Source: Schmidtea polychroa
Taxonomy: Eukaryota
Length of the DNA stretch: 64,000 bases
Direction: 5' to 3'
Assembly (NCBI GenBank): GCA_044892525.1
Contig: CM097886.1
Coordinates: 114,576,001-114,640,000 of the forward strand
Positions 1 to 51,005 of the stretch are shown here, piece by piece. Under the pieces are notes generated by a model that ran no database searches, was not told where the DNA came from, and worked only from the letters and a program-made list of their open reading frames with translations. A program made the position numbers and the translations under genes. Numbering within the stretch: the stretch's first letter is position 1; each line of letters begins with the position of its first letter.

Positions 1-2
1 AA

Positions 3-3000
3 ATGCCATTCGGACTGACCAACGCACCAGCATCGTTTCAAAGGTGTATGAACTTTGTCACTCATGGAATCAAACAATGTATGGTATATATTGATGATTT
101 GTTAATCTATTCAGCGACATTTGAACAACATCTGGAGGATATCCGAAATGTATTTATTCGATTACGACAATGGAAACTCAAGCTCAAACCGTCAAAATGC
201 GACTGGTCAAAGGAAAAGGTCACGTTTTTGGGACACATAGTGTCAGCTAAAGGAAAGGAGCCAGATCCAAGAAACATTGAGAAAATAAAAACATGTCCAG
301 CACCGAAAACTGTCACCCAAGTTCAGGAATTTCTAGGATTATGCGGATACTATCGCAAATTTATCAAAAATTATGCAGGAATTGCAAAACCAATCCAGGA
401 ATTAGTAAAGAAAGACATTTCGTTCATTTGGGGGAAGGAACAACAAGAGGCGTTTGAAACGCTGAGAGACAAACTAATCGAAGCACCTATCCTCGTACAC
501 CCAGATTTCAAGAAACCATTTCTATTAGCAACGGATGCAAGCGGGTACGCGGCAGGCGCGATTCTGGGACAATTAGACGACGAAGGTAAAGAAAGAGTAA
601 TTGGATATTACAGTCGAACATTCAAAAAGCACGAGAAGAACTATTCGGTAACAGAACGAGAAGCATTGGCTATAATACAAGCAATCAAACATTTTCGATA
701 TTTGTTATGGGGACATGAGATATGTATAACCACAGATCATCAACCATTAGTGTGGCTAGGGCAACATAAAGAAGCGTCCAGTAGACTAATGAGATGGGCA
801 ATGCAGCTACAAGAGTATTCACCGTTCATAAAATTCAAAGCGGGAAGAGCGAATGCAAACGCCGACTGTATGTCAAGGTTTATTTTTCCAGATTTGGTAG
901 ATCCAGAAATGCAACGTATATGCCTGATGGTAGCAGAAGACCTAGATTTCTGCCAATTACGAAAAGACCAACAAGAAGACGCAGAACTGAAACAAATTAT
1001 CGATTATGTAAAAACAGGAAAGACGGAGGTATATGCGAAAGACCAAAAATTAAAAGAACATATGGATAAACACCGACACCGATATATCATAGAGAAAGAT
1101 TGGTTGCTGATAATGGATGGGGAAAAACGATTAATGTGTATACCGGAAAACCGACGGAAAGAGTTACTAACGCAATACCACGATGGGAGATTGGGAGGAC
1201 ATATGTCATCAAAAAAGACGTTAGCAAGAATGAAACAAAAATATTTCTGGCCTACCCTAACGGAAGACGTAACCGAATGGGTGAAAAACTGCATAACCTG
1301 TGCAACAAGGAAAAACACTGGATCGAAATGGAAAGCACCTTTGACGCCAATGCCGGTACCAATAGAGCCGATGACAATGATATCAATGGATGTAGTTGGT
1401 CCATTGCCAGAATCGGATAAAGGAAACGTTTATATTTTAGTGATTACAGACTTTCTCACAAAATTTCCAGAAGCATTCGCGATGCCAGACCAAAAAGCTA
1501 AAACAATCGCAAAAATCTTGGTCGAAGAGATATGTTGCCGTTACGGGACACCGAAGCAAATCTTGACTGATCAAGGAACTAATTTTATGAGTGAAATAAT
1601 GAGTGAGGTAACCAATTACTTCAAAATCGCAAAATTGAGAACATCACCGTATCATCCTCAAACCAATGGGATGACGGAAAGATTTAATGGAACACTTATA
1701 CAAATGTTATCAAACTACGTCGACCGTCACCAACGAGATTGGGACGAATATATAAACCTATGTCTTATGGCGTACAGAATGTCGATTCACGCATCAACGA
1801 AAATGAGCCCATTCAAATTAATGTACGGAAGAGAATGTAACATGCCAATGGACCTGGAATACCAACCACCGATATCGCAATACATGGAGATAGATGATTA
1901 TGTTACGAAATTCAAGGAAAGAATGCAGGAGATTTGGGAAACTGCGGGATTAAACATCAAGTTCTACCAGGAAAGTTATAAAGATTTACACGATCGAAAG
2001 AAAAACGTGAAGCAACATACGTTTCAAACAGGCGATTGGGTGATGATCGAGACCCCAGAATTAATTCCCGGAACCACAAGAAAGTTACAACGGAACGGGA
2101 AAGGACCATACGAGATCTTGTTCGTAGGCGAGACCAATGTAAGAGTGAAATTGGTAAATAATCCATTCACCAGGCCAATATACGTAAACGTGGCACGATG
2201 CAAATCAATTCCAAAAACAGCCACCAGTCAACCAGAAGGCCGTACATTAACCACACGTTCGCAAACCTACAGAATGAACATGATGCAACAACTCGCAGAA
2301 CCTATCACTGGACGATTGGGCATACAACCATCGGAAGCTGAAAAAATCGTACGAGAGGTAAAGATAAAATTACCCGGATGGGCAAAAGATCGATTAGATT
2401 TCGAAATATTAGGAGGATTATTGACGATGATCGAAAATTATGCAAACAGAGAGAGAACACATCCGTTATTACGAGTAGTCAAAAGCCAATGGCCAATATT
2501 ATTTACAATAACAGATCATTATGGAGATACACCATTACACAAGCTCATGAAAGTAGGTAACAACGAGCAAATACTAGAAACAATAGAAGCATTTCACGAC
2601 TGCAAGAGATCAACAGAACAAGAAAATAACCAAGGTTACACACCATTAATGATAGCAGCAAACAGAGGCAAAACAAAAGACATAATAACCGCATTACTTA
2701 ATACTGGATCAAAAATAACTACACAAGACCACGATCGGAAAAACGCACTACATCATGCTATCGAAGGGAAAAGTACCGAAGCGTTCACGTCGTTGATGGA
2801 GCTACTATCATATGAGGATAATCGAGAAGTCGGAAACATGTATGATGGATTATTAACAGCGATCAAAGAGAAACTGACAACAATTACCGGAGTATTAATC
2901 ACTTGGAGAAACCCAATTAAAAATAATTATATGATCAACTTAAACGAAGCATTCACGAGAGGAGAGAACACGCTTATGAGAGAAGCTATGAGAGGACATC

Positions 3001-3803
3001 ATTTATTCGAAATCCCGAATCAATTACTAGAACGAGGAATAACCTTCACAAATCATAAGGATGAGCAGTTATTAAAAAAGCGAATTGACACATTCGAAAA
3101 ATCAATATTCCAATTCATTACTCAGGTACGAAATAAATATTGGGGAACGGTAAGTGTGTTATACATGATGGACACGATGAACAACATCCGCGAGAATTAC
3201 CTAGATATTATTCAAATACTTACCGCAGAGGAACGAATCAATAATCCAACCGGAATGAAAATGAGAATAAGGCATGGGAAATCAAGAGAACCAAAGTCGC
3301 AAACGAACCATAAAATCGCAAATAAAGTCATCGAAACAAAATCAATGAGTATAGATCAAGGAGCAATAATATGCAAAGCGAAAGAAGTGTTCTTTGAGGA
3401 AATGCTAGAGCTACCAGATGAAGTAATATTATCAGAAATAATAAAAGCCGTACACACATACGCAAGAGATCAAACCACGGGTTTAGATATCGGGAAAATC
3501 AAAACCTTCTTACCTAGAGCATTTACGATGGTAACAAAGGATTCCAGAACACCTCTACAACAAGCAATACTGGTTGCAAAAGAAAATAGAGCAATAACGA
3601 TCGTGAGAATCCTTAGAGATATGGGCGAGGGAACCAACACGAAAAATGAACAAGGCGAAACGGCCATGATGTATGCAGCTATAACGAAAATACACCCAAA
3701 AACACTCCACATACTACATCAATCAGGATTGAGACTAGACGAAAATCAAACGAAGGGAACTCCACATTGGACTGGGCAACCATACAGCCAAACTTGGAAA
3801 TGA
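3..3803 (+). CDS. pol: Gypsy Pol (RT C-terminal part, RNase H, integrase) fused in frame to ankyrin repeats; 5' incomplete
   Basis: MPFGLTNAPASFQR and YIDD (RT); TDAS...TDHQPL (RNase H); HHCC zinc finger (HDGRLGGH...CITC); D,D35E core (SMDVVGP, TDQG, NGMTERFN); GPY motif. Ankyrin consensus follows: GDTPLH, GYTPLMIAA, KNALHHAI, RTPLQQAI, GETAMMYAA. Confidence 0.95.
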   Translation: MPFGLTNAPASFQRCMNFVTHGIKQCMVYIDDLLIYSATFEQHLEDIRNVFIRLRQWKLKLKPSKCDWSKEKVTFLGHIVSAKGKEPDPRNIEKIKTCPAPKTVTQVQEFLGLCGYYRKFIKNYAGIAKPIQELVKKDISFIWGKEQQEAFETLRDKLIEAPILVHPDFKKPFLLATDASGYAAGAILGQLDDEGKERVIGYYSRTFKKHEKNYSVTEREALAIIQAIKHFRYLLWGHEICITTDHQPLVWLGQHKEASSRLMRWAMQLQEYSPFIKFKAGRANANADCMSRFIFPDLVDPEMQRICLMVAEDLDFCQLRKDQQEDAELKQIIDYVKTGKTEVYAKDQKLKEHMDKHRHRYIIEKDWLLIMDGEKRLMCIPENRRKELLTQYHDGRLGGHMSSKKTLARMKQKYFWPTLTEDVTEWVKNCITCATRKNTGSKWKAPLTPMPVPIEPMTMISMDVVGPLPESDKGNVYILVITDFLTKFPEAFAMPDQKAKTIAKILVEEICCRYGTPKQILTDQGTNFMSEIMSEVTNYFKIAKLRTSPYHPQTNGMTERFNGTLIQMLSNYVDRHQRDWDEYINLCLMAYRMSIHASTKMSPFKLMYGRECNMPMDLEYQPPISQYMEIDDYVTKFKERMQEIWETAGLNIKFYQESYKDLHDRKKNVKQHTFQTGDWVMIETPELIPGTTRKLQRNGKGPYEILFVGETNVRVKLVNNPFTRPIYVNVARCKSIPKTATSQPEGRTLTTRSQTYRMNMMQQLAEPITGRLGIQPSEAEKIVREVKIKLPGWAKDRLDFEILGGLLTMIENYANRERTHPLLRVVKSQWPILFTITDHYGDTPLHKLMKVGNNEQILETIEAFHDCKRSTEQENNQGYTPLMIAANRGKTKDIITALLNTGSKITTQDHDRKNALHHAIEGKSTEAFTSLMELLSYEDNREVGNMYDGLLTAIKEKLTTITGVLITWRNPIKNNYMINLNEAFTRGENTLMREAMRGHHLFEIPNQLLERGITFTNHKDEQLLKKRIDTFEKSIFQFITQVRNKYWGTVSVLYMMDTMNNIRENYLDIIQILTAEERINNPTGMKMRIRHGKSREPKSQTNHKIANKVIETKSMSIDQGAIICKAKEVFFEEMLELPDEVILSEIIKAVHTYARDQTTGLDIGKIKTFLPRAFTMVTKDSRTPLQQAILVAKENRAITIVRILRDMGEGTNTKNEQGETAMMYAAITKIHPKTLHILHQSGLRLDENQTKGTPHWTGQPYSQTWK

Positions 3804-5491
3804 TCAGATTTATTTGCAAAAATGCGACAAAAGAAGAAGTTGAAAATATATGCAAAAACACATCTCAATTTCAATGGAATACGGTACGGAAAAATCTAGA
3901 AGCAATGAAATTGTTATTAACATGGAGAGTACCACAAAATAATAAATATGCGATAAATATAAACGAATTTTACGAAAACGGAGAAAACGCGATGGTAAAG
4001 AATACCCTAACTAAAGGGGGGACACCTAAAATTATCTTAATAGTATTAAATAGAGAAGACCTCAAATTCACGCAAAATCAAAACGAGCAACAACGAATAG
4101 GAAAACATCGTCGTATTCAATTGAGAGAATTAGTCAAGGAATGGAATAGAAAGAGACAAGCTGCAACGGGTAGAAAAGAGTTTGAATTCGAAGCAAAGTT
4201 AGCAAGGAACAGAGTGTTAACAGCATATCGCAGATTATTGAACGATATAAATGTCGAGGACGACATTTTAAACGACAGCGGGGGAGATAAACACGATGAC
4301 AATGACGGAAAAGGCCGAAAGGAGGATAAAGGGAAAAGAGAACCGGAAGAGGATAAACCGGAAAACAAGGATTCGGGTACGAGAAGAGAGGGAAACAGCC
4401 CGGGAACCAAGACCAAAGAGGAGGAAAAACCGAATAATGGAAAACAGAGGGTATGCCTACCGTTCACTAACAAAGAAATAGAAACAAATATGATCTTAAT
4501 GATAATCATGCTAACCATGATAGAGTTAGTAACAGCTCATGGAGGGACGAGAACGATAAAAGAAATCAAAGAAGCGGAGAATCAAGATAGCAAAGAGGAA
4601 GAACTAAAACAAGAAAAGAAAAAGCAAGCACAAGAGCAGCAGTGGGATTTAAAGGAAGAATGGGGCCTAAAGGAAAGGTGCATACTAGGAAGATGTATGT
4701 CTAGAGCGTATCAGAGATTAGTACTGATAAATGAGGACACAGAACCAATAACAGAGGTAAGAATACAAGAAGCATACCGAAATCGAGACGGGAAAAGAAT
4801 AACGAACGTAAAGGGAAAAGAGGTGCACCTAGGAAAAGGAGGTGAAGTAGTAATAACGCAACTCCAACCAAGAAAAGAACACAAAGTCTGTATTTCAAGA
4901 TTAGGACCAGGTGAGAGATGCCATCAATATGTGACGCAGCAGCAGCCCCCAAAGGAATACACGGTTTGTATCTGGAGGAACGAATCAAAAAGGGAATGCC
5001 GACGATACCCGGGGAAAAGAGGGAAGAAAAGAAAAAACAACGACGAAAAGGACGAAGGAGGAAAACACAAGAAAACCGGCGAGGAAGCCCAGGACAACTA
5101 CGTTTCAGAAGAAGAGATGGAAAAAATACAAAAGATGGCAAAGGAGGGTATGAACGAGGAAATAGCAAGAATACGAGAGATGATGAAAGGAAATGGCAAA
5201 AGAGGAAACGAGAAAAGTACAGAAGCGATATCAACATTAACAAACAAGGAAAAACCAGAGAGTATAAGCGTGAAGCAGAAGATGTGGATCAGCGGGATAA
5301 TAATAACAGGGGCATTCCTAATCATAACGGGGGGAACAATAAAAATAATTAAAGATAAACGACATCGCGGAGAACTAGAGATGACCCGAATCAGAAATTT
5401 CCAACATCGAGTGAAACGACCAAGTGATATCAAACAAGAACAGTGGGTGGAGGCCTGGAACGCTCAGCGCCCTCCAAAACCCCGTATATAG
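3746..5491 (+). CDS. Probable frameshifted continuation of Pol-ANK: one more ankyrin repeat, charged linker, internal signal-peptide-like segment, Cys/FN3-like ectodomain, TM helix, short tail
   Basis: The frame begins SNEGNSTLDWATIQPNLEMIRF (ankyrin consensus) where ORF1 loses ankyrin similarity; one extra A at 3742-3745 would join the frames. Hydrophobic MILMIIMLTMIELVTAHG at ~4490-4540; motifs ITQLQPRKEHKVCI and VTQQQPPKEYTVCI; TM MWISGIIITGAFLIITGGTIKII at ~5282-5350. Confidence 0.7.
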   Translation, partial: SNEGNSTLDWATIQPNLEMIRFICKNATKEEVENICKNTSQFQWNTVRKNLEAMKLLLTWRVPQNNKYAININEFYENGENAMVKNTLTKGGTPKIILIVLNREDLKFTQNQNEQQRIGKHRRIQLRELVKEWNRKRQAATGRKEFEFEAKLARNRVLTAYRRLLNDINVEDDILNDSGGDKHDDNDGKGRKEDKGKREPEEDKPENKDSGTRREGNSPGTKTKEEEKPNNGKQRVCLPFTNKEIETNMILMIIMLTMIELVTAHGGTRTIKEIKEAENQDSKEEELKQEKKKQAQEQQWDLKEEWGLKERCILGRCMSRAYQRLVLINEDTEPITEVRIQEAYRNRDGKRITNVKGKEVHLGKGGEVVITQLQPRKEHKVCISRLGPGERCHQYVTQQQPPKEYTVCIWRNESKRECRRYPGKRGKKRKNNDEKDEGGKHKKTGEEAQDNYVSEEEMEKIQKMAKEGMNEEIARIREMMKGNGKRGNEKSTEAISTLTNKEKPESISVKQKMWISGIIITGAFLIITGGTIKIIKDKRHRGELEMTRIRNFQHRVKRPSDIKQEQWVEAWNAQRPPKPRI

Positions 5492-5651
5492 AAAGGGATA
5501 TGACTGTATATAATTGTAAAAAGTAAGTATATCTTATGTATATAACAGTACTATATCTTTATATAAGCGCGGTATCAATATTATAAAATAACGGGGATCA
5601 TAAAATGAAATTAAATTTAGATAAGAGTTGAAAAGTGTATATAAATTAAGA

Positions 5652-5960
5652 ATGGAGCAAGGAAGTAACGAAATGAACCACAACACAGTAACCGAAGAAT
5701 TATGGAAGCAACAATGTGCCGTATTAGCACAATTAGTGTCTAATTTGCAAGAACAAGGATTGACGATGCAAAAGAACCTAATCGAGAGTATGAACAGAGG
5801 ATTTAGTTATTTGAAGATAATTGAAGACCAGAGGTTAAAAATCGAACAAATGCAAAGAGAAATAGAGAGGATAACTCAATATAGCCGAAGACAGGAAATC
5901 GAATTGGACAGAATGATGGAGGAAGCAGAACAGACAGAAATAGAAGACTGGTCAGAATGA
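5652..5960 (+). CDS. Element cargo ORF, short coiled-coil protein of unknown function
   Basis: Open frame with heptad-like E/Q/L pattern, same A-rich codon bias as pol, bounded by AT-rich spacers; ATG preceded by AG. Confidence 0.6.
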   Translation: MEQGSNEMNHNTVTEELWKQQCAVLAQLVSNLQEQGLTMQKNLIESMNRGFSYLKIIEDQRLKIEQMQREIERITQYSRRQEIELDRMMEEAEQTEIEDWSE

Positions 5961-6096
5961 CTAATGAGTAGAGAGGAGGGCGGACACGAAGCCGACTCTT
6001 CCGAACCATAAACCAAACCTAGCTTAAAATGTAAATAATTGTAAATAAAATATCGAACCTGTATCGATAAGAACTATATGTATATATAATTATAGA

Positions 6097-7485
6097 ATGG
6101 ATAAACGACAAAGAGAAGAGTTCAGAGAGATTGTCGAACAAGTCCGAAAATCTACAACGATCAGAATACACAAACATGTTATGTGCGGAATATGTGAAAA
6201 GTTGTTAAAGGAACCTCACCAAACCCAATGTGGATGCAGATTATGTAAGGAATGCATCAGTGAAGCAATAAAGAATAGACCACAGTGGTTCCCGGTGTGT
6301 AAAGAGACACTAATATCGAGTTTAGAAGACACTAACGAGGATAAAGCCGCAGTGAAAGACATGTTAAACACCAATCTGGGATGTAAAAATACCCCATGCG
6401 AATGGAAAGGAGTAATATGGAAAGTAGTGCAACATATGGGAGAATGTATGTACAGAATCGGCCAGTGTGAAAGGTGCCATAAAACCATTCGAGCAAGCGA
6501 AGAAAAAGAGCATCAAAGCCAGTGTGAAGAGAGACTAGAAAGATGTAAACATTGTGGAGAAATAGATACGTGGAAAAATCTCACCAGCAAACATCACAAT
6601 GTCCAAGAGGAAAAGGTATGTGCAGAGTTCAGTGGGGAATGCCCGAACGGATGCGAGGAAGGGAGAATAATAAAAATAGCCCAACACCTAAAGGAATGTG
6701 AAAGGAAAAGAATGACATGTGCACTCGGTAAATGGGGCTGTCAGAAACTACTACACCGAGGAGAGTTACCACATCATTTAGTAGAAAATGCTTCAACCCA
6801 CGCAGAAATGTGGTCGACTGCGTTACAAGAAAGTGAAGAGAAAGTAAAACAAATGGAGATAGAGATAACATCGTTGAAAGCGTTAGTCAAAGAACTACTA
6901 GAAGAAAGAGAAGCGTTCGAAGAAGCCCGAGCTAACATAAAGATGCAAATAAATCGTATAAAAATCAGTAATAATCAGGCCAAGGAGCTACATCGGAAAA
7001 TACAGGAAATAAATCTAAATGAGATAACCCCAACAGCACCTTATATATGGAAGATAACGGGAGTGAAAGAAAGAATACGGAAAGCCAAAACTGGGGAAGA
7101 GACAAGAATAACAAGTCCTGCATTCCATTCTTGGAAAAATGGGTACAAGATGAAAATGAGGATATATACCAACGGAGATGGAGCCGGATTGAATACACAT
7201 TTTTCGATATTTTTTCTATTATGTAAAGGGGAACGTGACGAGGTAATAGAATGGCCATTCCAGGCAAAAATCGATATCACAATGATGAATGACCAAAGCA
7301 TCCACGAACAAAGCTTCAAAACAACGGGAACCCAGCTGTGTTACCGGCGACCTACTGATGAGGAAGGAGCAGCATCAGGAGCACCCACGTTCATCTTACA
7401 GCAGAAGGTGGAAGAGATGACAAAAAACGACACAATATATATAAAAATGACAGTGAGAAGGGAAGGGAAGGGTAGAACGGAGTAA
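6097..7485 (+). CDS. traf: Intronless TRAF-family protein (RING, TRAF zinc fingers, coiled coil, MATH) inside the retrotransposon
   Basis: RING CGIC...CGCRLCKEC...FPVC; several C/H zinc fingers; coiled coil; MATH domain YIWKI...SPAF...GYKMKMRIYTNGDG...THFSIFF...EWPF...GAPTFI. 462 aa, uninterrupted. Confidence 0.95.
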   Translation: MDKRQREEFREIVEQVRKSTTIRIHKHVMCGICEKLLKEPHQTQCGCRLCKECISEAIKNRPQWFPVCKETLISSLEDTNEDKAAVKDMLNTNLGCKNTPCEWKGVIWKVVQHMGECMYRIGQCERCHKTIRASEEKEHQSQCEERLERCKHCGEIDTWKNLTSKHHNVQEEKVCAEFSGECPNGCEEGRIIKIAQHLKECERKRMTCALGKWGCQKLLHRGELPHHLVENASTHAEMWSTALQESEEKVKQMEIEITSLKALVKELLEEREAFEEARANIKMQINRIKISNNQAKELHRKIQEINLNEITPTAPYIWKITGVKERIRKAKTGEETRITSPAFHSWKNGYKMKMRIYTNGDGAGLNTHFSIFFLLCKGERDEVIEWPFQAKIDITMMNDQSIHEQSFKTTGTQLCYRRPTDEEGAASGAPTFILQQKVEEMTKNDTIYIKMTVRREGKGRTE

Positions 7486-7677
7486 CCCATCGAATAATGT
7501 TGTATATAATAACCTGTATATATCGGCGTATATAACCAATAAAATATTATATAATAATAGTATGAAAAACCCTAAATACGAAAACCCAAAAATGATGCGA
7601 AAATTTCCGAAGAACCAGTAACTAATGAATAAAATTTTTCCATAATAAAAAGATTAATCTATATCAATGATTTAGAA

Positions 7678-8733
7678 ATGACACAAGAGAGAATAACCGA
7701 AACTACGATAGCCCCAACCAATACCCACAAGACACAAATTCCCCGAGAATATAACGAAAAATGGAACAAAGTAATGTTCCAACTAACTAACCTCACCCGA
7801 AACTACATCAAAGAAGCTAGAGAAGATGAGAACAGTAAATATCAATGGCTAATCCACAATTTAAGAGAGGAAGCAGAAGCATGTAAAAGAGCATCAAAAT
7901 GGGATTCATTAGAAAATACCCGCCAAGAAGCACACAGCCACTACTTAAAGCAGCTAGTGCAGGAAGCGAGAAAGAGGCTCACTGACGAAAACGCAAAACG
8001 CGAAGCGGAAAAGCAAATAGAAGGAAGGAAAATGATGCATTTATTGGCAGAGGCCAGAAAATGGAAAAGACAAAATAGTGAAATGAAAAAAGAGATGAAA
8101 GAATTGCCCATGAGACTCGGATATGAAAGCGAACAGGGCAAATGGGAGGAAAATTTAATAATAAAGGAAGAACTGAAACGGTTGAGAAAGGTCGCCACCC
8201 GAAGCCAAACATGGCAGATGAAGGCCATGGAGTTCGAGCGACATTTGGCAATGAAATGCGACATAAGAGAGCACGAGAATGCCGCAATGGAGGAGATGAT
8301 AACCCAACAAGCAGGACGGGTTTTGGAATTAGTAAATCAGGTCGTAGAGATGAAACGAGACCTCAATGGATTACAGGGATCACTAGAACAAAGAAACATG
8401 GTCCTAGCTGGAAAAAACAAAAAATTAGAAAACGAGAGGAAAATGTATGCCGAAAATATCAAAAACTTGGAAATAGAAATTGAAAAATGGAAGGGCGACG
8501 AGAAAATCAAGGCCCTAGATAGACAAATAGAGATGAAAGACGAAGAGACAAGGTATCTCACCTACCTGCTCGACGAAGAGCTGAATATCACTCGAGCTCT
8601 AAGAGACGAAGTTAATGAATTGAGAGCTCAAATCCCCCAATATTACCTACCTTATGACCCTATTGCGATACAGTTGCATCCAGCGGTCGATAGTGATGAA
8701 GGTTATGTGGGACAGGAGGAAACCTTCGTATAA
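7678..8733 (+). CDS. Element cargo ORF, long coiled-coil protein
   Basis: 351-aa open frame, E/K/R/L-rich heptads, element-type codon bias, TTTAG just before the ATG. Confidence 0.75.
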   Translation: MTQERITETTIAPTNTHKTQIPREYNEKWNKVMFQLTNLTRNYIKEAREDENSKYQWLIHNLREEAEACKRASKWDSLENTRQEAHSHYLKQLVQEARKRLTDENAKREAEKQIEGRKMMHLLAEARKWKRQNSEMKKEMKELPMRLGYESEQGKWEENLIIKEELKRLRKVATRSQTWQMKAMEFERHLAMKCDIREHENAAMEEMITQQAGRVLELVNQVVEMKRDLNGLQGSLEQRNMVLAGKNKKLENERKMYAENIKNLEIEIEKWKGDEKIKALDRQIEMKDEETRYLTYLLDEELNITRALRDEVNELRAQIPQYYLPYDPIAIQLHPAVDSDEGYVGQEETFV

Positions 8734-8904
8734 AGGTGAATAAAAAGATAAAAACAAAAAAAATCGGGACGTATATCCCAAACAAAAAAAAATTAAAGTA
8801 TTGTAAAAGTATTCAAGGGATTGTAACCCAAACTATTAAATTTTATATAAATGTATAAGTATAAGTCGTACTATAGCGCACCATTAACTGTACATATTAT
8901 AGAT

Positions 8905-9594
8905 ATGAAAATCGAGGAAATGATAGAAATCACGAGTGACGTGGAAGAAGGAGAAATTGTAACAGAAACAACAGAAACACAAACGCTAGAAGCAGAGTTG
9001 CGAGCAGAGAAGTGTGAAAACGAGAGACTGGTAAACAAATACATAGAAGATCGAAAAATAATAAAGATACTAAAGAAAGAATGCAGAGTGCTAGGGGAAG
9101 TAAAAAGAGAAACAGAAGAGGAAAACGAATGGCTGCAAGAACAACGAAAACGAGGGAGAAATTGGGAGAAGATTGCGGAAGAATTATGGCAAGAAAGGGC
9201 CAGTAGAAAGGCAGACGAAGTGATTAGCGATTATTGGAAAACCGAGGCACGGAAACACCAAGAAAGTTTGAAGGAGTTACAACTCCAACTGCACCAAAAA
9301 CAAAAGGAATGCGAGATAATGAAAAGAATGAACAGCAAATACCACGAAATCGACGACGGAGAAGACGAGGAAAGGGGAAATGATTTCTTACAAATACTAA
9401 ACCATAAAAACCTGGAAAGAGCAACGCAGGAAATAAAAGTGTTAAAAGGGAAAATAAAGTTCCTAGAACAACAGATAGACGAAAGAGATAAGCAACTAGA
9501 AGTACTGCCAGAATTGAGAAAACGGGTAATAAAAGCGGAAACGGAAGTGATGAGAGCGTCTCAGAAAGCCCGTAAAAAGAAATCCCGACCATAA
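8905..9594 (+). CDS. Element cargo ORF, coiled-coil protein with basic C-terminus
   Basis: Open frame (track start 8851; ATG 8905 after TATAG preferred), E/K-rich heptads, ends RKKKSRP. Confidence 0.7.
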   Translation: MKIEEMIEITSDVEEGEIVTETTETQTLEAELRAEKCENERLVNKYIEDRKIIKILKKECRVLGEVKRETEEENEWLQEQRKRGRNWEKIAEELWQERASRKADEVISDYWKTEARKHQESLKELQLQLHQKQKECEIMKRMNSKYHEIDDGEDEERGNDFLQILNHKNLERATQEIKVLKGKIKFLEQQIDERDKQLEVLPELRKRVIKAETEVMRASQKARKKKSRP

Positions 9595-9649
9595 ATTAAA
9601 AAGGGATAATTGATGTAAATAAATGTATATAAAATGTTCGCATATTAGT

Positions 9650-10303
9650 ATGTGGCCGGAAGCAACCCTGATGACCCTAATAATGATAACAATAAACGGA
9701 ATGCCCATGCGGCAGTCAGCCCCAAACCCCTGGGAGAACCCCGAGAAACAGCAAAGCCGATTAATCAAACTGAAAAATGAAAGAAAACCCTCCAACAATA
9801 TCCCGAAACAATGCTGGAACAAAGCCGTCTGGCAAAAGACCCAAAGACAACTGAATCTGCAATCTCAAAGAATCGAACAACTTGAAACCCTCCTACATGA
9901 ACAAACCACCCAACAGTCTCTGAAAGAAACCCTCGTAAAGAAAGAAATAAAAGAAAGTCAAGCCCTATTCTATGTTACCATTAGTGAAACCATCCTCATC
10001 TGCGCGCTAATCATCTGGAAGACATATGATATCTATCGAGCATGGAACAGAACCCAACCACTATCCGAGAGACCCAAAAGAAAGAACCTACGATTCCGAA
10101 ACGTACATAAACAAGCAGTACATTGTCAACAACCGGACCCACTCGACCAAATACAACAAAATCTGTCTTCTAATCAAATACCCGTTACAATCCAGCTCTC
10201 CACAGTAACAACTTCAACCAACCCTTCAAGCCAGAATCCCAGAGATCCCCAAAAGGTAGTTAACCGAAACAGTAGTAACATGTCGAACATTGAAATCCCG
10301 TGA
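9650..10303 (+). CDS. Element cargo ORF, predicted type I membrane protein (signal peptide, coiled-coil ectodomain, TM, S/T/P/Q tail)
   Basis: MWPEATLMTLIMITING N-terminus; TM ALFYVTISETILICALIIW; low-complexity tail. Confidence 0.65.
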   Translation: MWPEATLMTLIMITINGMPMRQSAPNPWENPEKQQSRLIKLKNERKPSNNIPKQCWNKAVWQKTQRQLNLQSQRIEQLETLLHEQTTQQSLKETLVKKEIKESQALFYVTISETILICALIIWKTYDIYRAWNRTQPLSERPKRKNLRFRNVHKQAVHCQQPDPLDQIQQNLSSNQIPVTIQLSTVTTSTNPSSQNPRDPQKVVNRNSSNMSNIEIP

Positions 10304-10854
10304 CAGTAATTTGATGTATATAATTCCGGTCACCCTAAGTGGCCACTGCTTGCTTATATTTGTCTTATTATCTGTTTAATTAAAGTATTAGTCAGTTAAT
10401 TTGTTTTTATGTCTGTACGTATTTTGATTGTGGAAGTTTTGTGTTATAACAACAGAGGTATGATTAGAATGTATGTCATTATGCGAATTGCGGGACGCAA
10501 TTTTGATGGGTCCCCGAGTGATTTGTTGGGCTGAATCGAAGGGTAGCTGGGAAATTAGGTCGAATTTAACTAAAGTAAAAATAAGAAATAAAATAAATAG
10601 ATTGACGAATAAAATAGAATAGAACATAAGAAAAACAATAATTAGAAATAAGAATTAAAACAAAAAAAAATATGAAAATAAGAAAAATTAAAATAGGACA
10701 ATAGAATGACAGAAAATAACGCAAAATATAATAAATAATAAGGAAATTAAGGAAAATAAATAAAAACATAATTTTAATAAAGAAAATAAGAAGAAATAAC
10801 TCTAAAACAAGGAAAATAAATTAAATTAATAAAATTAAGCGGTACTCAATTCTG

Positions 10855-10920
10855 ATTGGTCCGCGCAAACAAAAAATTAATATATAAGCAGGCATTAAAA
10901 TCATAATAATTACAGTTAAT
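10855..10920 (+). promoter_or_regulatory. LTR promoter: inverted CCAAT (ATTGG 10855-10859), TATA (TATATAAG 10881-10888), Inr-like CAGTT at ~10913
   Basis: ATTGG and TATATAAG occur in the same order in the LTRs at 24823-24860 (-) and 33575-33600 (-). Confidence 0.75.
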
Positions 10921-10936
10921 CTAACCACCTCAATAG

Positions 10937-10983
10937 GTAAGTAAAGTTTAAAATAATCACAGTTAATCTAACCACCTCAATAG
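10937..10983 (+). other. Predicted 47-nt LTR mini-intron (GTAAGT...CTAAC...ATAG) whose last 25 nt duplicate exon 1
   Basis: Direct repeat ACAGTTAATCTAACCACCTCAATAG at 10912-10936 and 10959-10983; the first copy is followed by GTAAGT. Confidence 0.7.
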
Positions 10984-13215
10984 ATCCATTCTACGACGAA
11001 ACCGCAATTAAACAATCAATCCACAGCAACTCACGAGGACTATTCCGGAATCCAAGAAATTTCAGCTGAATCTAGATAATTTCGAACATTTATTACTTCG
11101 ACACAGTACCCCTTTTCGACTCAGCCTATACCTCTATTAAACACTCGGTAAGGATCTTTTGATTTCATAATTTGAATTTTAAAGTAATAGTTATGCATAT
11201 GATTTAATTATAATTTTAATTTAAAGAACTTGTTTTCTTTTCGTTTGATTTCGAATACTTGGTGTAATTTAACGATTTAGTATTTAACAATAAATGATTT
11301 GCTATGAATGATTGATTTCTAGGAATTATTGACTTTTATGAACTGTTTTAATGAGTTATTATTTAATGCCATTCAAATTTTCGAGAAACGTGGCGTTGAT
11401 ATACTCTAGTGTCATGGTGTGAGGTGCCTTCGGGAGCTCCACCGGTGGGCCTAGGGTATTTCAATCACGCAGCTGATTCGGGCCGTAATGTGGGGGCTTC
11501 CTCACGGGTCCGTCGCTGAAGGTGCGACTAAATCCTATAGGAAAATGTTGCCAGAAAATTGGTAGTCGTATAGCGATGGAAAATAGAGATGTAGGAAGAA
11601 ACGTTCAGAGAGTTTTTATGTATTCGCGCAGTGATTGAGGGTGTCACACTATCGTCTCAAGATATCGTTTCTACTAAGCCCAAATTTCCTCTATCGCTCT
11701 AAAGCTCTATGTAGGTTGCTCATCGAGAGTCGTTCAAATGCTATAGGTGACATATCTTCGATGCTCGTATGTTTCACTCGAAATTTATACCTACTATGTT
11801 TTATGGCCTTCCGTGTTATTATTTTCCTCGTCTACGTGTTCTCTCAAAGATGAAGCTGCAGGGGATTACAGAAAATAAGTAGTCTCGGATGAGCGTTAGA
11901 ATTCCATGAACAAGTTGTCTCGCATAAAATTTTGAATTACGTAAAACGGGTTACTTCAACTATTTTTGAATTGTATAAAATGATTTACTTCAATTGATTT
12001 TAGAATTATATAAAGGGATTAACTTCCACAAATTTTTCTAATTACATAAACCGGTTAGTGCCAAATAATCTCAAGAGTAAAACGAAATCAAATCGAGTCA
12101 AAAAATATATTTTTTTTTACAAACCAATCTAACATGATAATCCTTACCTAGTAAATATAAATTACCCGTGTTTCATGGAGTTGATAATCCAGCGAGGATA
12201 GGTAGGAAATCTCCAAAATATCGGGAACGGATCAATAAACCGCATTTGAGGAGTTGAGAAGTTCCCCCTGGGGGGCAAATTATATCCAACTCTTGCGATA
12301 CCGAGAATCATAATTTTTCCAGCATTTCCGTGAGAATTAGTATGACATCATCATGAGCAAGGAAATGTGAGCATCTGTGCAGTGGGTTGATCGAGATAGT
12401 AGCCAGAGAACATGCCAGCATGTAAACAGTTGAGGGCATCAGTTAGTCATTAGGAGTGGAATTAAGTATGAGAAATAAAAACTTGCATACGTCACCCGTT
12501 TTCAGACACACTACAGTAGCTAATCACGGTGTGTAGATTCACACCGACTTGTACTCATAACAAACCAGACCGGACGTGTCAGCTGGAATTTTTGGGTTAT
12601 CAAATTAAATCACTCGCAGTCATTAGATTCCCACTGGTCGGAACTAATAGCCAACTGTCAGACTGATTTTGTCTACTTAGTAGGATTAATTTAGTTATTA
12701 TCTCATGTTGAATAATTTGTCGCCTATCATAAATAAATAATTAAAAATTTTTTTTTAATGTCTTCCCGTTCATCATAAATGAACTAATTAAGAATAATTT
12801 ATGGATTTCTATTCACCCTAAATAATTAATCTAAAATTAATCGACCTACGTACAGGATACATTCATCGAAACGATTTGTTAGGAAAAGTCGGCAATGTAA
12901 TTCAACTCTCTTCAAACGTTAATTACTAACTTCAAGCGATTTAGATAACCGTAGTTTCCTCGACCTAGAATTCCTCTCACCAGTAGTAATACCTCTCCTT
13001 ACTTGTGCAAAATCGTGCTTGACTGATTTATTTTCTTATAATTAATGACCCAAAGGGAACGAGGACCCATAGCGCAGTTGAATTTCTTTGGCTGATACAC
13101 CCATTCTTGTCTATGAAACCAACTATGATCAGTAAAATATAAATGTGACCAGACGACGACCTTCTAATTGATTTGATTTGTTGTTCATTTCCATCTTTTC
13201 TTGCAGTCACCCAAG

Positions 13216-14064
13216 ATGTTACCCAATTCCAAGACCATTCTCAGACCTTGTTTCTCTTGTTCAGACAAGAATTCAATCATCAAGGATCTGCAGGCCCAAA
13301 TCGGAAAGTACAAGAGAAAAATAGACGAGTTAGAGGGGACATGGTTTAGTCCTACCCAGATGAAAGAGGCTCAGAAGAAGCTGCACCGCAGCGAGCACTG
13401 TCGAGATGCGCTAATTTCCGAAAGTCGGGCGCAGAGAAGCCTAATAAAGGAGCAGTCGGAGGCGCTGCACAAGTTATACGTCCAAGCAGCAACCACTAGG
13501 AGAATCGCGAAGATCCCAATTAATGAAGCCAGTAATCTTTTTCCAGCGCACCACGAGATCTCGGGCGGGCCTTCATCTCCACCTGGGAAGTCCTGCCATG
13601 GGTGCGTGGAGACCGAGCTCTCTCCCAGTGGTCCAGACGTTGTATTCACCGGAACTAATAAAGTGCAGCCAAACACCGCATCGTCCTCAATCGTGCAAAC
13701 CCCAACAGCTTCAAAACCTAAACGTCGGCAACTGTCGCGCGCCGAACGAAAACGAAAGCAACGAGAGCGGGCTTCCATCAAACGGATTCTACCATCAACC
13801 GTCACCCCAGTCGACGGCAACAGCAATCCAATAGTAGTCGATCTAACGACCGGAATCTCAGGGCGAGTCATCTCCGCCGCCGGGGTAACATGGGAAGAAA
13901 ACGCCGCCGAATTCTTTGATTTAAACGAGTTACTCGCCGACTCGGAGTGGGAAAAATGGGAATTGCTCCGTAAACTGGCCTCATCTTCTAGAGAGACCTG
14001 GACATCTTCTGACATCATTGTTTACCCTTGTGTTTTCCCTATTCTTAGGAATTTTGGTATATAA
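13216..14064 (+). CDS. LTR-encoded 282-aa protein (CxxC + coiled coil, Arg/Lys-rich motif, acidic-aromatic C-terminus), predicted spliced
   Basis: Intact ORF. Polypyrimidine-CAG acceptor at 13204-13206, donor GGTAAG at 11147-11152, AATAAA at 14096-14101; all are conserved in the solo LTR. Homologues at 21762-22505 and 30791-31646. Confidence 0.8.
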   Translation: MLPNSKTILRPCFSCSDKNSIIKDLQAQIGKYKRKIDELEGTWFSPTQMKEAQKKLHRSEHCRDALISESRAQRSLIKEQSEALHKLYVQAATTRRIAKIPINEASNLFPAHHEISGGPSSPPGKSCHGCVETELSPSGPDVVFTGTNKVQPNTASSSIVQTPTASKPKRRQLSRAERKRKQRERASIKRILPSTVTPVDGNSNPIVVDLTTGISGRVISAAGVTWEENAAEFFDLNELLADSEWEKWELLRKLASSSRETWTSSDIIVYPCVFPILRNFGI

Positions 14065-14520
14065 GTGTTCAATGTACTTGTATAATAATTCTGACAATAA
14101 ACCATTCTCGTCTATATATGTGTTTTTGTTTATCTTAAAATAGTCGATCTGAAATTGGTGAATAACATTGAGAGTCGTAGAAAATGAGGAGCATTAGTCA
14201 GTTGGCAACCCCAGCTAGGAACCTTGCGATGGGGTGATGGAATGATTAGACGTAAGTCCTTCTATCGGCAGTCAGGGTTGGGAAGTCGAGGCCTCAGTAA
14301 GGAGTAGTCCGAAGGAGCTGGCTCACCTGCTTACTGGCGTCTCGCCGGCATAGCACAGTTCCAACGTGAAGCAATTCACGGGTGCTATGTTGGAATGTAG
14401 GTTATGTGCGGGTCCTGCTTGGCGATGACAAAACGAAGGACGAGCGAAATCGATGTGGGCATTCATCCTCTAGACTGAAAGCTGCACTAAAAGGGGTCAT
14501 CCGAGTAGCTACCCGCAACA

Positions 14521-17500
14521 GTATGGACTCGATAAACATAATTTAATATCAAGTTTCGTTGTGAATTCTCTCATCAATCCTATTTCAAACGCATTTCCAC
14601 AATCAACTCTTACCTCATTTAGGCATCCAAATTTTAAAATCCATTTTTCTAAAATCGTTTTCTTTATTGTTTCTTCATCTTGTCTTGTTATAGCTATCAA
14701 GTATTGATACTTTCTTTACTAGTCTATTATACCCAATATCTACTTCTTACGTCATTTTGTTTTTTGCATTGGTCCACATATATCCACGAATATAATTTCG
14801 AACATTTCGTTTGATTCTAGTTTTTTAGTGGTTCCTTCGTTGTAATTGTTATAGCCTTGGTTTTTTGACAAATCTCACAACTTCGAATAGTTTTCTGAAT
14901 CTGACTTCACAGGACTTTCCCAATATACCTATCATTCGTATAATCAGCTATCTTTTTCGACCCTAGCATGACACAATAGTATTTCCTTTATGATTTCTTG
15001 TATCTCGTTTTCTGGTATCATCGTTTTCTTTCGTGCTTCTTCTTTCAAGTTTCCTGGTTGATTGGTGCTTCTCCCTTCTTCTCTGAATGAGTCTAGTAAT
15101 CTAGTTTTAATCTTTCTTTTCTTAGCTTCTTTGTGGGCCATTTGACATTGAACACACGCTTCACATTTAGGTCTGGACACCATGTCTGCATTTTGGTGAT
15201 TAACACCTTTTCTATATTCAGCGATTATATCCAAACTGCTCAAATAATTGATCCAGGTTTGGAATTGTGAAGTATTTGGCTTCTTGGTTGTCATCATAAA
15301 CGTGATCGCCTTGTGGTCTGTCCTTAGCGTGAATCTTCTTCCGTAGAGATAGTGCTTAAAATGAATACAAAAATAATATACCACCAATTGTTCCTTCATT
15401 GTAATTCAATATCCTTTTTCATGGTTCGTCATCGAGTGTGATCCATACGCAATTACTCTCTCCTTTTCATCTTTATTTATTTGTGAAAGCTCTGCTCCAA
15501 TGTTATCAAAACTGGCATCAGTATCTAAAATGAACTCCTTTCTCAGATCCGAAAAGCATAAGATCGGTGCCGTTGTGAGTGCTAACTTCAATCCCTCGAA
15601 TACGTTATTCGTTCCTTTTGTCCATTCCACTCTTGTGTTACTCGGACCGATACATAATTGTTCTGACATCCTTGCTTTCTTTTCATACTCACTGATGGAT
15701 CTTCTATAATAATTGCAAATGCTTAGAAAACTTCGATGTTTCTTTACGCAACTTGGCTTCCCAAAGTTTTGTATAGCCTGAATCTTAGAAGGATCGGTCT
15801 GTACTCCTTTTTTGCTGATTATGTGTTCTAAGAATCTGATTTCTTTCTGTATTATTTGACACTTTTCTGAATTAATCTTTAGTCCTGCTTCTTCTATGGC
15901 TTATAATACTTTACTGAGTATTGTATAATGTTTTTCTTTATTGCTCGAATAAATCAGAATGTCATCCAAATACACCATTGCTCCATTTATTTTGCCTATT
16001 ACCTTTGTCATCATTTCCTGGAAAGTACCTGGTGCTGCAGCAATTCCGAACTGCATTCTATTGAAACAGTATTGCTCTTTCTTTGTTGAGAATGCTGTTT
16101 TCTCTTGCGATTCTTCGTCTAACTCCACTTGATAATATGCATTACCAAGATCGATTGAGCTAAAATAAACGGACACTCTGAACAAATCTAACATCTCGTC
16201 TATGTTTGGCATTGGGAATGCCTGCCTCTCTGTTACTGCGTTCAGCTGCCCGAAATCCAAGCATAGCCTAATATCTTTTTTATCTTTATTTCACACGCAG
16301 ATTAACAGCGTGTTCTATGGGGAGTTGCATTTCCGTATAATCCGTTTTCGTACAAATTTTGTAATGCTTCTTCAATTTTTGTTTCCAAATTCAATGGTTG
16401 ACTATATGGTTTTATGTTTATTGATTCACCTCTTGTTATTATCTTATGTTTTACTAAATGCGTTCGACCCACATCCCATTTATCAGCCATAAACACGTTT
16501 CCACTGTTCGTTATTATTTCCTTTAATTTACTATCCTCATTAATCTTAAAATGTGCCAACGTTCGCTTCAACCTTTCTCCATCCTTTATTTGTCTGATGA
16601 CTTTTGGTTCAATGTTACAAATATAGTTCTTGTCTTTTTCATTTGATTCGATATCTTTCCTTTTTACAAGCCAATATCCAAATGTTTCTTGTAATCCTAT
16701 TCCTCCAATCATCTCTGGGGTCACTTTCTCCGCCACAATGAATCTAACTTCCCTGGAAATATCTCCGATAGACACTTTAACCTTTGTTATTTCAATAGTC
16801 GCTATCGTACTTTCGTTTGCACATCGTAACTTATTGTCGCTTCTCATCAACTGTTGTCCTCGTAATTTGTTAAAACAGTTCACACTCATTACGTTTATTC
16901 GTGCTCAGGTATCCAATAAACAGTCGAAAATTTCTCCATTCATCATAACTGTTACACAGGGTCTTCCCGTAGCTTGTTTTACACTATTTCTACCTACCCG
17001 TTTCAATTGTTCCAGTTCTTTCCACTTCCTCGTCAAACTTTTCTCTCCTTAGGAACCTGTATACTTTCTCACTTCCCTTTCCTACATTCTCCCACTTTTC
17101 TACCCCTTGAGGATATTCCATCCACTTTTCTGTTAGTATATGGCTCCAACCAACTCCTCTACTGGCGGAGCCCTGTTGTTTTGGTACGTCCTACTAAAAT
17201 TATCTTCATTTGTCTCAACGCACGATTCCATTTCCCCTTCTTCTTCGATTCCTTTAATCCGGCTGTATCTGTTTCCTGTCGGTCTTTGTTTCTCTATCGT
17301 TTTCTTGTAACTCGACTTTGAATAACATTCTTCAGATATATGACCATTTTTGTTGAATCTTTTACACCGTATTTCTTGACATAACCTTCTTATATGACCT
17401 TTGCCACAACCAAAACATTTTGGCACTTTTTTATCTGGACAATTCCTACTTATATGTCCGCTTCTGTGACACGTCCAGCACTCTATCTTATTTCTTACTG

Positions 17501-18175
17501 GACAGTCTATTTTAGTGTGGCCTGTTTTGTGGCATAGCCAGCACTCTGGTTCTTCTCGTCGCCTTCCTTCTTCTCTTTCATCTCTTTGCTTGTACTGTCC
17601 TCTTCTCTGTGGATCCTGATAGACCACTCTTGCATAACTTTTCATAGCGTTTATCTGATCTCTCTGTTTGTCAACTTTATTCATCATAATTAATGTTTCC
17701 TTTATTTCCTCTGTGCTTTTTATTTTTACCAATATTACTTCTTTCTCAACTTCTTTATTCTCAAACAACTTGTTGGCAAGGTCCTCCATTTTTTTAAATA
17801 TGTTTCAATCTCTTCGCCTCTTCTTTTATAATTCAATAAACTTTCCATATCATTTATTACATCTCTTTCTTAATCAAATGCCATTCGTAACTTGACTTGA
17901 AATCCCTCTGCTCTTTTAACTGTCTTAGCATATTTCTCCAATAGATCCTCGTCGATCATGCATGCAGTCAATCTTTTCTGTTCTTTTTTATTGATGCCTT
18001 TAGCATCGAAATAAATCTGGCATCTTCTAATGAATTTTTCTAAACTTTCACCTTGCCAGAACACCTTTGGCAATAATCTTTCAGTAATCACGTCAGTGTT
18101 TACCGCTGCCACCATATTATAATTCTCATCCGTTACAACATTAACATCTGGTTCCAAATCACTAAATAACTCCAT
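14521..18175 (-). mobile_element. Decayed conventional Ty3/gypsy element (gag with CCHC knuckles, protease, RT, RNase H, integrase), interrupted in IN by the giant element
   Basis: CWLCHKTGH and CWTCHRSGH knuckles; LLDT*A protease site; YLDD; DTDASF; fragmented by stops and frameshifts. Confidence 0.9.
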
Positions 18176-18616
18176 AAATTTTATTCAATAAATTTTAGAC
18201 TCAAAAACTTGTCTTTCTTATTTTTGTTATTTAAAGAAATTTCCATTTTCCTTTTTTCAATAAAAATATTTTTTTAAAATTTAACAAACTTTCTAATTAA
18301 ATCTCTAAGAATCTATCAACTTCCTCATAACTTGTTTATAGTAATTGATAAAATTCATTTTTATAATTAAAACAGAAATTTTATAAAATATACATAACTG
18401 ATATCTAAAATAGAGTATAAATTAAAATAATTCGATTTTGTTAATATGTATCAATAATATAAACTATCACATGTGGGATTGTTGCTCATTTTTACTATTA
18501 ATTCTTCAAAAATACTAATTTAATAGGTTAAATTTCATTATTTTAGCATAATAATAATTAATCTAAATTTTTATGCATTTCAGCAGGTTGAAAAAAATTT
18601 CCCAGTCTAAATATCA

Positions 18617-19216
18617 ATGGCATATTCCAGATCTTTTGGAAACGTTTGGACACTTTTAAAAGAAAACGCATTTCAACAAGTCGACATATCTGATGATATT
18701 TTGTGCTTAATTTGTAAGAAAATTATGGTCAATTCACAAAATGGACCATGTGGTTGCAGATACTGTTTGGAATGCATAACAAATCATCTAAATGAAAACA
18801 ATCATCAATGCCCTGGCACTACAGAACTTTGTGAAAATGAACAATTAACTCTTGATAATTTGCAGACTGATAATGCTATTAATGTGAAAATTTCAAGAAC
18901 TGTCGTAAATTGTCCATTTCAAAATTGCCATTATCAAAATGAACTTAAACTTATTGGAGACCACATAATGGCGTGTAATTTCCGTGAAATTAATTGCCCA
19001 CTTACCGAAATCGGATGTAAAAAAATGAATTTGACCAGTGATTATATGCTAAATCATTTTAAATCGGAAATCGTTTCTCATTCAACATTATTTTTGGAAT
19101 GTTTCGATAATATGAAAAATGAAATTGAATCTCAATCAAAAATTCTAAAAGAAATGAAAGAAGAAAACCAATTAATGAATGAGAAAATTTTAGCACTTGA
19201 ACAAGCAAATCAATCG
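18617..19216 (+). CDS. traf: Host TRAF gene, coding exon 1 (RING, zinc finger, start of coiled coil)
   Basis: CLIC...CGCRYCLEC...CPG RING; CPFQNC and CPLTEIGC fingers; phase-0 GTAAAT donor at 19217; upstream TTTCAGCAG acceptor near 18588. Confidence 0.85.
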
Positions 19217-19675
19217 GTAAATTTTAATTAGACACATTTTCATTCGTTAAAATTTTAATAATTTTATTTTGTAAATGCTAACTAATTTTTGAGTGATCTA
19301 TTTAAAGCATGTAAAAATTGGTTTAAACGAGATATTTAAAATTTATATAATTAAATAATTATTCAATAAAAATAATTTTAAATAAAAATTTATAATTTTA
19401 TTTAAACAAACAATTGTTCCATAATATTTGTGTGATATTGGAATTTTTTTGATTTATTTTAAAATTTAAATAAGGGAAAAATGCAATTTTAATCAAATGC
19501 AATATATTACATTTATATTTACTATTTTTTTAAATATTCATATTTAATTATATTTATTTACATTTAATTTGTAAGATTTTTAATTTCCTTATTTTAAATA
19601 TGTAATTATTTGAGTTTCTAGTTTTTAATTGAGAATGTTTTGTGGGCTTCTTCTTACATATAGCTTTTAACTCTG

Positions 19676-20547: not shown

Positions 20548-21198
20548 GGTCTTTTAATTTTATCGATTTTATTATTTTTATTCTTTTTTTATCAGTCATT
20601 TATTTTCTAATTTAATAAATATTTCATTTTATTGCTTTTTTTTGATAATTCATTTTTCAATTGTCTAAATAATTATATTTCTGCAAATAATTCCTTAATT
20701 TGTTTTAATTTTACTTTTAAATTGTTTCTTTAATCTACGTTCTTCTGTTTTCTCCTCATCTTATTTTCTTGAATTTTTCGTTTAATTCGATCATATTTTA
20801 TTTTTTCCTGTTTTCTTTTTTCTCATTTTTGTGTTATTTTATTTCAATTTCAACTTTTCGATTCTTATTTTTTTCTGATTCTTGCTCAGCACATTGGAAA
20901 TTAGAGTAATTATCTTATAGTTTATCCTCTGGCGGTCAAATATCCGTTATTGCACCAGGGTAATGTATTATTCTGTGTGTCGTAGACTTTGGACTCCTGT
21001 AATTCGTGCAATTCATCCGACTTTAGCTGTCTATTTCACTAAATCGTACAAGATTGGATAGATCTACTTCTTTACCTGTAGATTCGTTTGTACCTGTAGT
21101 AAATGCATCTGAATTCATTTGGTGACTAAGTGGATCGTGAAAACTCGCTTGTATGTGTCAGCTCATTACACAAAAAATTTTTGAGATACGCTTCCTAT

Positions 21199-50810: not shown

Positions 50811-51005
50811 TTGGTAAATTACTAAATAACTTTATAAATTTTATTTAATCAAATTTCAATCTTCCTTTTAAAATATTTTTGATAAAATTATTTTTAAAAT
50901 TTCTAATTAAAATTTTTAGAATCTTTCATCCTCCCCCTACGGATAATTATTAATGGGATCTGATTGAATGAATATTGGAGTATTATTGTCTAAAAGTTCG
51001 TTTGG

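Follow-up and report, generated by a model that had tools for sequence, protein, structure and literature searches.

Why should a retrotransposon carry kilobases of coding DNA behind its integrase, and does that DNA matter to the element? The question is raised by a 64,000-nucleotide stretch of the genome of the planarian Schmidtea polychroa (GenBank assembly GCA_044892525.1, contig CM097886.1, positions 114,576,001 to 114,640,000; hereafter the window), whose first 14,520 bases hold the 3' half of a Ty3/gypsy element with ankyrin, TRAF and other accessory genes. We consider it probable that this half is part of a recently inserted, defective copy of a giant Burro-like element, that its accessory genes stay under purifying selection and that, taken jointly with this, they would be expressed by splicing of a leader from the long terminal repeat (LTR) and would dampen host cell-death and innate-immune signalling.

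Anatomy of a young, defective giant element

The upstream half of the element was read from the 30 kb that precede the window start (114576001 on its contig). The full element measures 28.6 kb, with a 20.6-kb internal region between two 4.0-kb LTRs, and this falls within the size given for giant Burro elements (internal region of up to 25 kb, about 30 kb including LTRs). The 3' LTR (10524-14520; forward strand, as for all features of the element below) is 3,997 bp long with TG...CA ends, and its 5' twin lies outside the window at G000:C2:114561970-114565967 (L002:5970-9967). The pair is 99.7% identical, with 12 substitutions over 3,997 bases (7 transitions and 5 transversions); the insertion is recent and the element young. 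The four bases at 14521-14524 also precede the 5' LTR and form a 4-bp target-site duplication. A primer-binding site, which we take to resemble tRNA-Pro, sits just inside the 5' LTR.

From 5' to 3' the element encodes a RING open reading frame (ORF), gag, a putative ubiquitin-like stretch, env, protease, reverse transcriptase (RT), RNase H, integrase, ankyrin repeats, a membrane-anchored C-terminus, ORF3, TRAF, ORF5, ORF6 and ORF7. About 8.3 kb of coding DNA follow the integrase, the ORFs almost abut, and positions 1-14520 contain no N. A first-pass annotation, made from the sequence alone, had placed the ORFs and domains within positions 1-14520 correctly, from the ankyrin repeats (Ank_2, E 3e-16) and the TRAF (MATH, E 4e-25) to the long LTR. 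Its description of the coding DNA as mostly intact holds for the cassette but not for the copy as a whole, which is defective: about 1.3 kb at the start of gag, present in 12 of 12 other copies, is lost, the upstream polyprotein contains stops and frame breaks, and the TRAF RING lacks one zinc ligand that is kept in 51 other copies matched by motif.

Other LTRs of this kind occur nearby. A solo LTR of the same family (window 21196-25184, reverse strand) is about 78% identical to the element LTR and has its own 4-bp target duplication, an open LTR ORF and the donor motif described below at the same offset. Upstream of the element lies another diverged LTR-like copy of the family (L003:2659-6519, reverse strand).

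The cargo is family-wide and under purifying selection

At least 92 genomic matches to the TRAF gene, from 2,168 candidates, were scored at 88% identity or more, and 84 of the 92 are free of stops; as the best matches were scored, this count is a lower bound that is biased to intact copies. The copies are spread over four large contigs, and 38 of the 39 that were fetched are colinear with the window as far as ORF6. They form two subfamilies, between which the integrase is 97-99% and the TRAF about 70% identical. We also picked 20 loci by the 5' RING that were absent from the TRAF list. Family integrase was in range at 14 of them, 13 of which had the TRAF, while the other six had no family sequence at the expected distance. 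The cargo is therefore not missing from other copies, an outcome that the first-pass annotation had named as fatal to its reading.

To describe selection we used pooled pairwise dN/dS over 36-40 copies, whose pairs are not independent, so that the values are descriptive. The integrase gave 0.02 (36 copies), and all ten cargo segments lay between 0.09 and 0.20. Among the individual values were 0.15 for the ankyrin region, 0.11-0.20 for the polyprotein C-terminus, 0.14 for ORF3, 0.13-0.20 for the TRAF, 0.09 for ORF5 and 0.14 for the N-terminal half of ORF6. Outside this pool, the 5' RING gave 0.12. An ORF inside the LTR gave 0.19 in comparison with the solo LTR, with differences by codon position of 20/22/60. 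Variants common to two or more copies had values of 0.07-0.25 and singletons of 0.29-0.58, a difference that fits selection while elements replicate and decay once they have inserted. Judged by these substitution patterns, neutral decay of the cargo, with dN/dS near 1, is excluded. The analysis thus adds quantitative evidence for purifying selection on every cargo gene and, with an env gene found upstream, bears out the picture of a virus-like element with accessory genes.

An expansion of planarian TRAF genes has been reported (excerpt of PMC6109357), and at least 92 intronless, element-borne TRAFs could inflate such counts.

Relationship to Burro elements

Burro/GYPSM1 is an element of about 30 kb whose 4,873-amino-acid ORF1 comprises Gag, MATH, ubiquitin-like and BCL2-like parts, an in-frame env, protease, RT, RNase H and integrase (PMC6431247). 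The same paper gives the Burro group polyproteins of about 4,900-5,100 amino acids from Gag through integrase, with two to three CCHC knuckles, lists MATH/TRAF, BIR, ankyrin and SMC-like motifs for Burro elements, notes the same motifs, BIR included, in Burro2-4, and proposes that they meddle with apoptosis and ubiquitination. Ankyrin, TRAF/MATH and coiled-coil cargo of planarian Burro/GYPSM1 elements appeared in print between 2007 and 2019. Giant gypsy elements whose cargo points to apoptosis and ubiquitin have thus been published before, and the suggestion of a possibly undescribed family finds no support as regards design: since PMC6431247 lists both layout and cargo, the kind of element has largely been described, although the window family differs from Burro1. 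An anti-apoptotic gene, which the first-pass annotation attributed to one Burro element, proves right for Burro1, whose BIR-RING gene protects stem cells from apoptosis according to Lee et al. 2026, as cited in an excerpt of PMC13465017. Burro1 transcription is under PIWI control (excerpt of PMC8532177).

The window family resembles Burro1/GYPSM1 in its size of about 30 kb, giant polyprotein, CCHC Gag, putative ubiquitin-like part, env between gag and protease, and ankyrin, MATH/TRAF and coiled-coil-like cargo. Compared with the description of Burro1, it has no MATH domain between Gag and the ubiquitin-like part or elsewhere inside the polyprotein, its polyprotein spans about 4,620 rather than 4,873 codons, and it has TRAF solely in the form of a full-length gene of its own on the 3' side. 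Pfam found no BIR in the scanned ORFs, neither the window element nor the 5' halves of 12 other copies show a BIR motif, and ORF5 directly follows the TRAF with no BIR gene between them. Elsewhere in the genome there are at least 150 BIR matches, and the three that we sampled belong to a second family (L075-L088, for example G000:C1:201095187-201125186). This family carries MATH within the polyprotein (E 1e-28; two of three sampled copies reach this region), a membrane-anchored polyprotein end of another, cysteine-rich kind, and a separate full TRAF next to a 392-amino-acid BIR-RING gene, a neighbourhood that presumably recalls the TRAF2-cIAP pair. The two families share their layout and primer-binding site, and are 88% identical in RT-RNase H and 82% in integrase, but only about 30% in ankyrin, TRAF and other accessory genes. 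By these comparisons the second family fits the description of Burro1 better than the window family does, and the window family belongs to the Burro-like group without being Burro1. A BIR-less sister of Burro1 beside a BIR-carrying family in one genome bears on how general the reported host benefit is.

The strongest competing view, which we regard as a serious possibility though not the favoured one, is that the window family is the counterpart of a named Burro2, 3 or 4 whose cargo Grohme et al. 2018 or Lee et al. 2026 have already depicted. The motifs noted in Burro2-4 (PMC6431247), the shared primer-binding site and the pol identity to the Burro1-like family are what one would then see; yet those motifs include the BIR that the window family lacks, and the window TRAF has no close relative in protein collections, where the best matches reach 34-40% identity. 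In the literature searched we found no account of splicing signals in Burro elements, of their dN/dS or of a last gene that is exchanged, and Grohme 2018, Lee 2026 and the supplements may contain them.

The polyprotein and its membrane-anchored end

Frame 3-3803 of the window runs from the end of RT through RNase H and integrase (pol of the giant polyprotein, 1-2240, 3' end approximate; Pfam RVT_1, RT_RNaseH, Integrase_H2C2 and rve) and continues in frame into an ankyrin-repeat region (2502-3752, Ank_2 in three stretches) fused behind the integrase. The polyprotein C-terminus (3650-5491, by frame continuity and hydropathy) consists of a linker, an internal signal-like hydrophobic segment at about 4490-4546, a predicted beta-sandwich ectodomain, a transmembrane (TM) helix at about 5294-5350 and a short tail. 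This part had been annotated as a membrane protein following the ankyrin gene; the two hydrophobic segments agree with that, but it is not a separate gene, for, of 60 copies examined, 55 hold both this part and the ankyrin region, and 44 of these read through the two in a single open frame. In the window copy it is out of frame with pol, and the break lies near 3700-3800. From the start of gag to the stop, the polyprotein spans a median of 4,618 codons in 10 of 10 copies, as measured from coordinates only.

The 5' half encodes a 161-amino-acid ORF with an IAP-type RING upstream of Gag. Gag itself has three CCHC knuckles (zf-CCHC, E 4e-10; Retrotrans_gag, E 0.023), and the ubiquitin-like stretch, whose Pfam match falls under the cut-off (E 0.0026), is 46% identical to that of the second family. 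Between it and env lies a possible BCL2-like stretch. The env, located between gag and an RVP protease, matches the fusion-glycoprotein family PF24664 in three consecutive pieces (E 2e-26, 1e-9 and 3e-19), a family of mononegavirus-related fusion proteins (Monjiviricetes, chuvirus-type). The stretch between protease and RT, where Burro elements have a dUTPase-like part, had no Pfam match in either family; the published assignment used HHpred. Units of about 74 bp stand in tandem between the 5' RING ORF and gag (L001:1340-1650) and differ in number among elements.

The model of the C-terminal ectodomain is all beta (pLDDT 62). An FN3 fold, guessed by eye, was not borne out, as Foldseek gave no match at E 0.001 or below and the best Z of 7.3 fell among unrelated beta-sandwiches; the ESM Atlas gave no usable match and a PDB sequence search was also empty. 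We favour a scheme in which protease and signal peptidase would cut the polyprotein so as to free its ankyrin part and two membrane proteins.

Accessory genes behind the polyprotein

The first accessory gene, ORF3 (5652-5960), is small, coiled-coil-like and without a known family by Pfam; it is 119 amino acids long in most copies and has a homologue in the second family. It is followed by an intronless, full-length TRAF of 462 amino acids (6097-7485) with RING, zinc fingers, coiled coil and MATH. Its best relatives among solved structures are TRAF2/3, and its best named relatives are planarian host TRAFs of Dendrocoelum and Dugesia. In a tree of 115 of 121 MATH domains, made with a quick method, the element sequences lie on one side of a branch with a support of 78, a result from which we conclude neither that there was a single capture nor who the donor was. 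Pieces of host-type TRAF genes, with exons for RING-zinc finger and MATH, flank the insertion at window 18611-19231 and 53222-53644 (both forward) and at L002:3546-4961 (reverse), so that the element sits among host TRAF-like genes. Capture of the element TRAF from these flanking genes was rejected, as they are 23-28% identical to it.

ORF5 (7678-8733; 351 amino acids) and ORF6 (8851-9594, likely start 8905) are coiled-coil-like by appearance and homologous to second-family ORFs; neither has a Pfam SMC match, and ORF5 has no Pfam family over the cut-off. ORF7 (9623-10303, likely start 9650) is a predicted type I membrane protein with one TM segment. The ORF inside the LTR (13216-14064, 282 amino acids; dN/dS above) is preceded by a pyrimidine tract and CAG, and has a homologue in the LTR of the second family.

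The remaining repeats of the window are of other kinds. Directly past the 3' LTR lies a decayed, ordinary gypsy-like element (14944-18184, reverse strand) with gag knuckles and protease-, RT- and RNase H-like pieces, and similar pieces occur near 50516-50813 and 58017-58949. A direct repeat of about 1 kb (42759-43750 and 49498-50501, 6.7 kb apart, 70-97% identical by piece) possibly represents the LTRs of another element.

A leader-splicing model for expression

How might a single element express this many genes? The LTR contains a predicted promoter and leader (10855-10942), with function read from motif conservation: a reverse CCAAT box at 10855, a TATA box 26 nt after it at 10881, and a splice-donor consensus at 10935-10942, 54-57 nt after the TATA. 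Of 41 LTRs, 36 conserve TATA and donor at this constant spacing, with varying bases in between; the pattern occurs in 15 of 17 subfamily B LTRs (two at a doubtful place) and not once in 76 kb of flanking DNA. At the other end, 17 accessory starts were compared, taken from the second family as well as from both subfamilies; 15 of them have a YAG no more than 6 nt before the ATG, and the other two have AAG; shuffled sequence would give 3.1, and controls gave 16/102 and 87/683. The spacers contain AATAAA or ATTAAA within 110 nt before the start in 16 of 17 cases, and a TGTA element in nine of the 17. One LTR transcript would carry all genes, and we think it fairly likely that a leader of about 25 nt would be spliced in cis onto alternative acceptors and that the spacers would supply the poly(A) signals. 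The predicted leader exon sequence recurs a few dozen bases past the donor (window about 10910-10985) in this LTR and several others.

Some points weigh against the model, which is built on sequence motifs rather than on spliced RNA. The TATA-donor unit was not found in any of four second-family LTRs, although the second-family genes have acceptors, the 17 starts represent seven homologous genes and are not independent, and the 6-nt cut-off and several start codons were picked after looking. A join of 6050 to 9637 in one of four contig sets compared with the window, considered as a sign of splicing, is explained by spacer similarity in subfamily B. That set, guessed to be RNA, covers 30 of 30 bins of window 1-10500 (the LTR is not covered) and was used neither for expression nor for splicing.

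The accessory genes might instead be released, in the manner of an operon, from a polycistronic RNA that the host would resolve by trans-splicing its spliced leader and forming 3' ends. Planarians do have spliced-leader trans-splicing (excerpt of PMC10899757), and the spacer hexamers, the TGTA elements and the second-family LTRs with no donor found would all suit such a process. We regard it as unlikely, since it does not account for a consensus donor kept at its distance from the TATA despite the varying bases between, and poly(A) hexamers are common in AT-rich DNA, the spacer count having no control. Cis-splicing from the LTR leader, our preferred model, would offer a concrete, testable account of how one retrotransposon expresses many accessory genes.

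An exchangeable 3' module

The region 9350-10460 of the window is common to only three of 39 near-identical copies. Most of the others have an ORF7 that is built alike, from a signal-like start through ectodomain and TM to the tail, and that is 19-23% identical to that of the window. The 53 ORF7 sequences comprise 17 of the window type, called alpha, and 36 of more diverse beta types, with a mean identity of 18% between the two groups. Both types occur with both subfamily bodies and the C-terminal half of ORF6 travels with the ORF7 type, which makes the window copy a recombinant. The dN/dS of ORF7 is 0.39 in the alpha and 0.45 in the beta group, and no positive selection was found, every part being below 1.

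An RVxF-like motif, presumably for docking of PP1, is present in 13 of 17 alpha tails, whereas all 36 beta tails lack it and the window copy has lost it; we treat it as a lead only. The ORF7 model (pLDDT 45) was too poor for a structure search, and the ESM Atlas gave only weak leads below 0.9. ORF7-type matches also stand head to tail with a period of about 1.5 kb at G000:C1:186484400-186499964, with at least 11 copies among the matches listed.

What the cargo may do for the element

It is likely that, in any cell in which the element replicates, the accessory genes would weaken the cell-death and innate-immune signalling of the host. On balance, we believe that the TRAF and the IAP-type RING would act as ubiquitin-ligase adaptors or decoys in TNFR/TLR-type pathways. 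This host-manipulating role is drawn by analogy, as the TRAF's closest named relatives are host TRAFs and the Burro1 BIR-RING is reported to protect stem cells. Several observations speak against it or against the selection behind it. The window family lacks BIR, the one cargo domain with a reported function, and no canonical TRAF-binding motif was seen by eye in the tails of the element's own membrane proteins. The possible BCL2-like stretch has, by a 3-sequence profile, a match to one BCL-2 structure (E 1.8 over 24 residues) and none by Pfam or phmmer. In addition, the TRAF tree is weak at a support of 78, and the dN/dS values come from the best-scoring matches, a choice that favours intact copies.

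Alternatively, the cassette could mainly serve virion assembly and cell-to-cell spread. A second surface protein would then mediate attachment, ORF7 would be a variable surface protein or one that excludes superinfection, and host signalling would be secondary. An env of the Monjiviricetes fusion type, a second membrane protein conserved in both families, and in ORF7 a fastest-changing gene whose deeply split types occur in both subfamilies would fit well. We think this improbable as the main role: it leaves TRAF, RING and ankyrin unexplained, ORF7 has dN/dS below 1 throughout, template switching by itself would link it to the 3' end, and the structure models gave no informative fold. A cargo captured at this locus only, misassembled or carried along as neutral DNA, at which the host TRAF-like genes on both sides and the six empty 5' RING loci might hint, is refuted by the TRAF copies on four contigs, the shared gene order, the low dN/dS, the 5' RING locus test and the low identity of the flanking TRAFs.

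Returning to the manipulation of host signalling, a bolder and more doubtful extension is that Burro-like elements are endogenous complex planarian viruses. They would have one LTR promoter, a 25-nt leader spliced to at least six accessory genes, a selected full-length TRAF and a second surface protein that ends the polyprotein; the exchangeable ORF6C-ORF7 would persist in ancient types of about 18% identity, which would mark groups for interference or host interaction and one of which has a PP1-docking-like motif, and the window family would have dropped the anti-apoptotic BIR. If this were true, BIR loss set against the host-useful BIR of Burro1 would offer a natural comparison of parasite and mutualist.

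Comparison with other known systems

Beyond Burro1, a close published layout is that of a Burro-like element of Dugesia tigrina, whose ORF1 likewise lacks MATH and which has MATH in a separate accessory ORF (PMC6431247). In that element the MATH ORF is described as lying upstream, whereas the window element has its TRAF behind pol and, as its upstream ORF, a RING of the IAP type with no BIR. An env between gag and pol is also known in Ty3/gypsy elements from the GAG-ENV-POL errantiviruses of Platyhelminthes, Nematoda and Bryozoa (excerpt of PMC13524379). The survey describing them left out LTR spacings above 14 kb, and its main text contains no occurrence of Burro, ankyrin or TRAF. The gene order is the same. 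The errantivirus env is of the HSV/gB type (class III), and that of the window element has its match in a chuvirus-type fusion family.

Complex retroviruses such as foamy viruses and lentiviruses have accessory genes near the 3' LTR, a major splice donor in the leader and several acceptors. If the splicing model holds, the window element would resemble them in all three respects. It differs from them in its Ty3/gypsy-type pol, in an env inside the polyprotein and in its host-derived TRAF and RING, and it is not a member of the Retroviridae.

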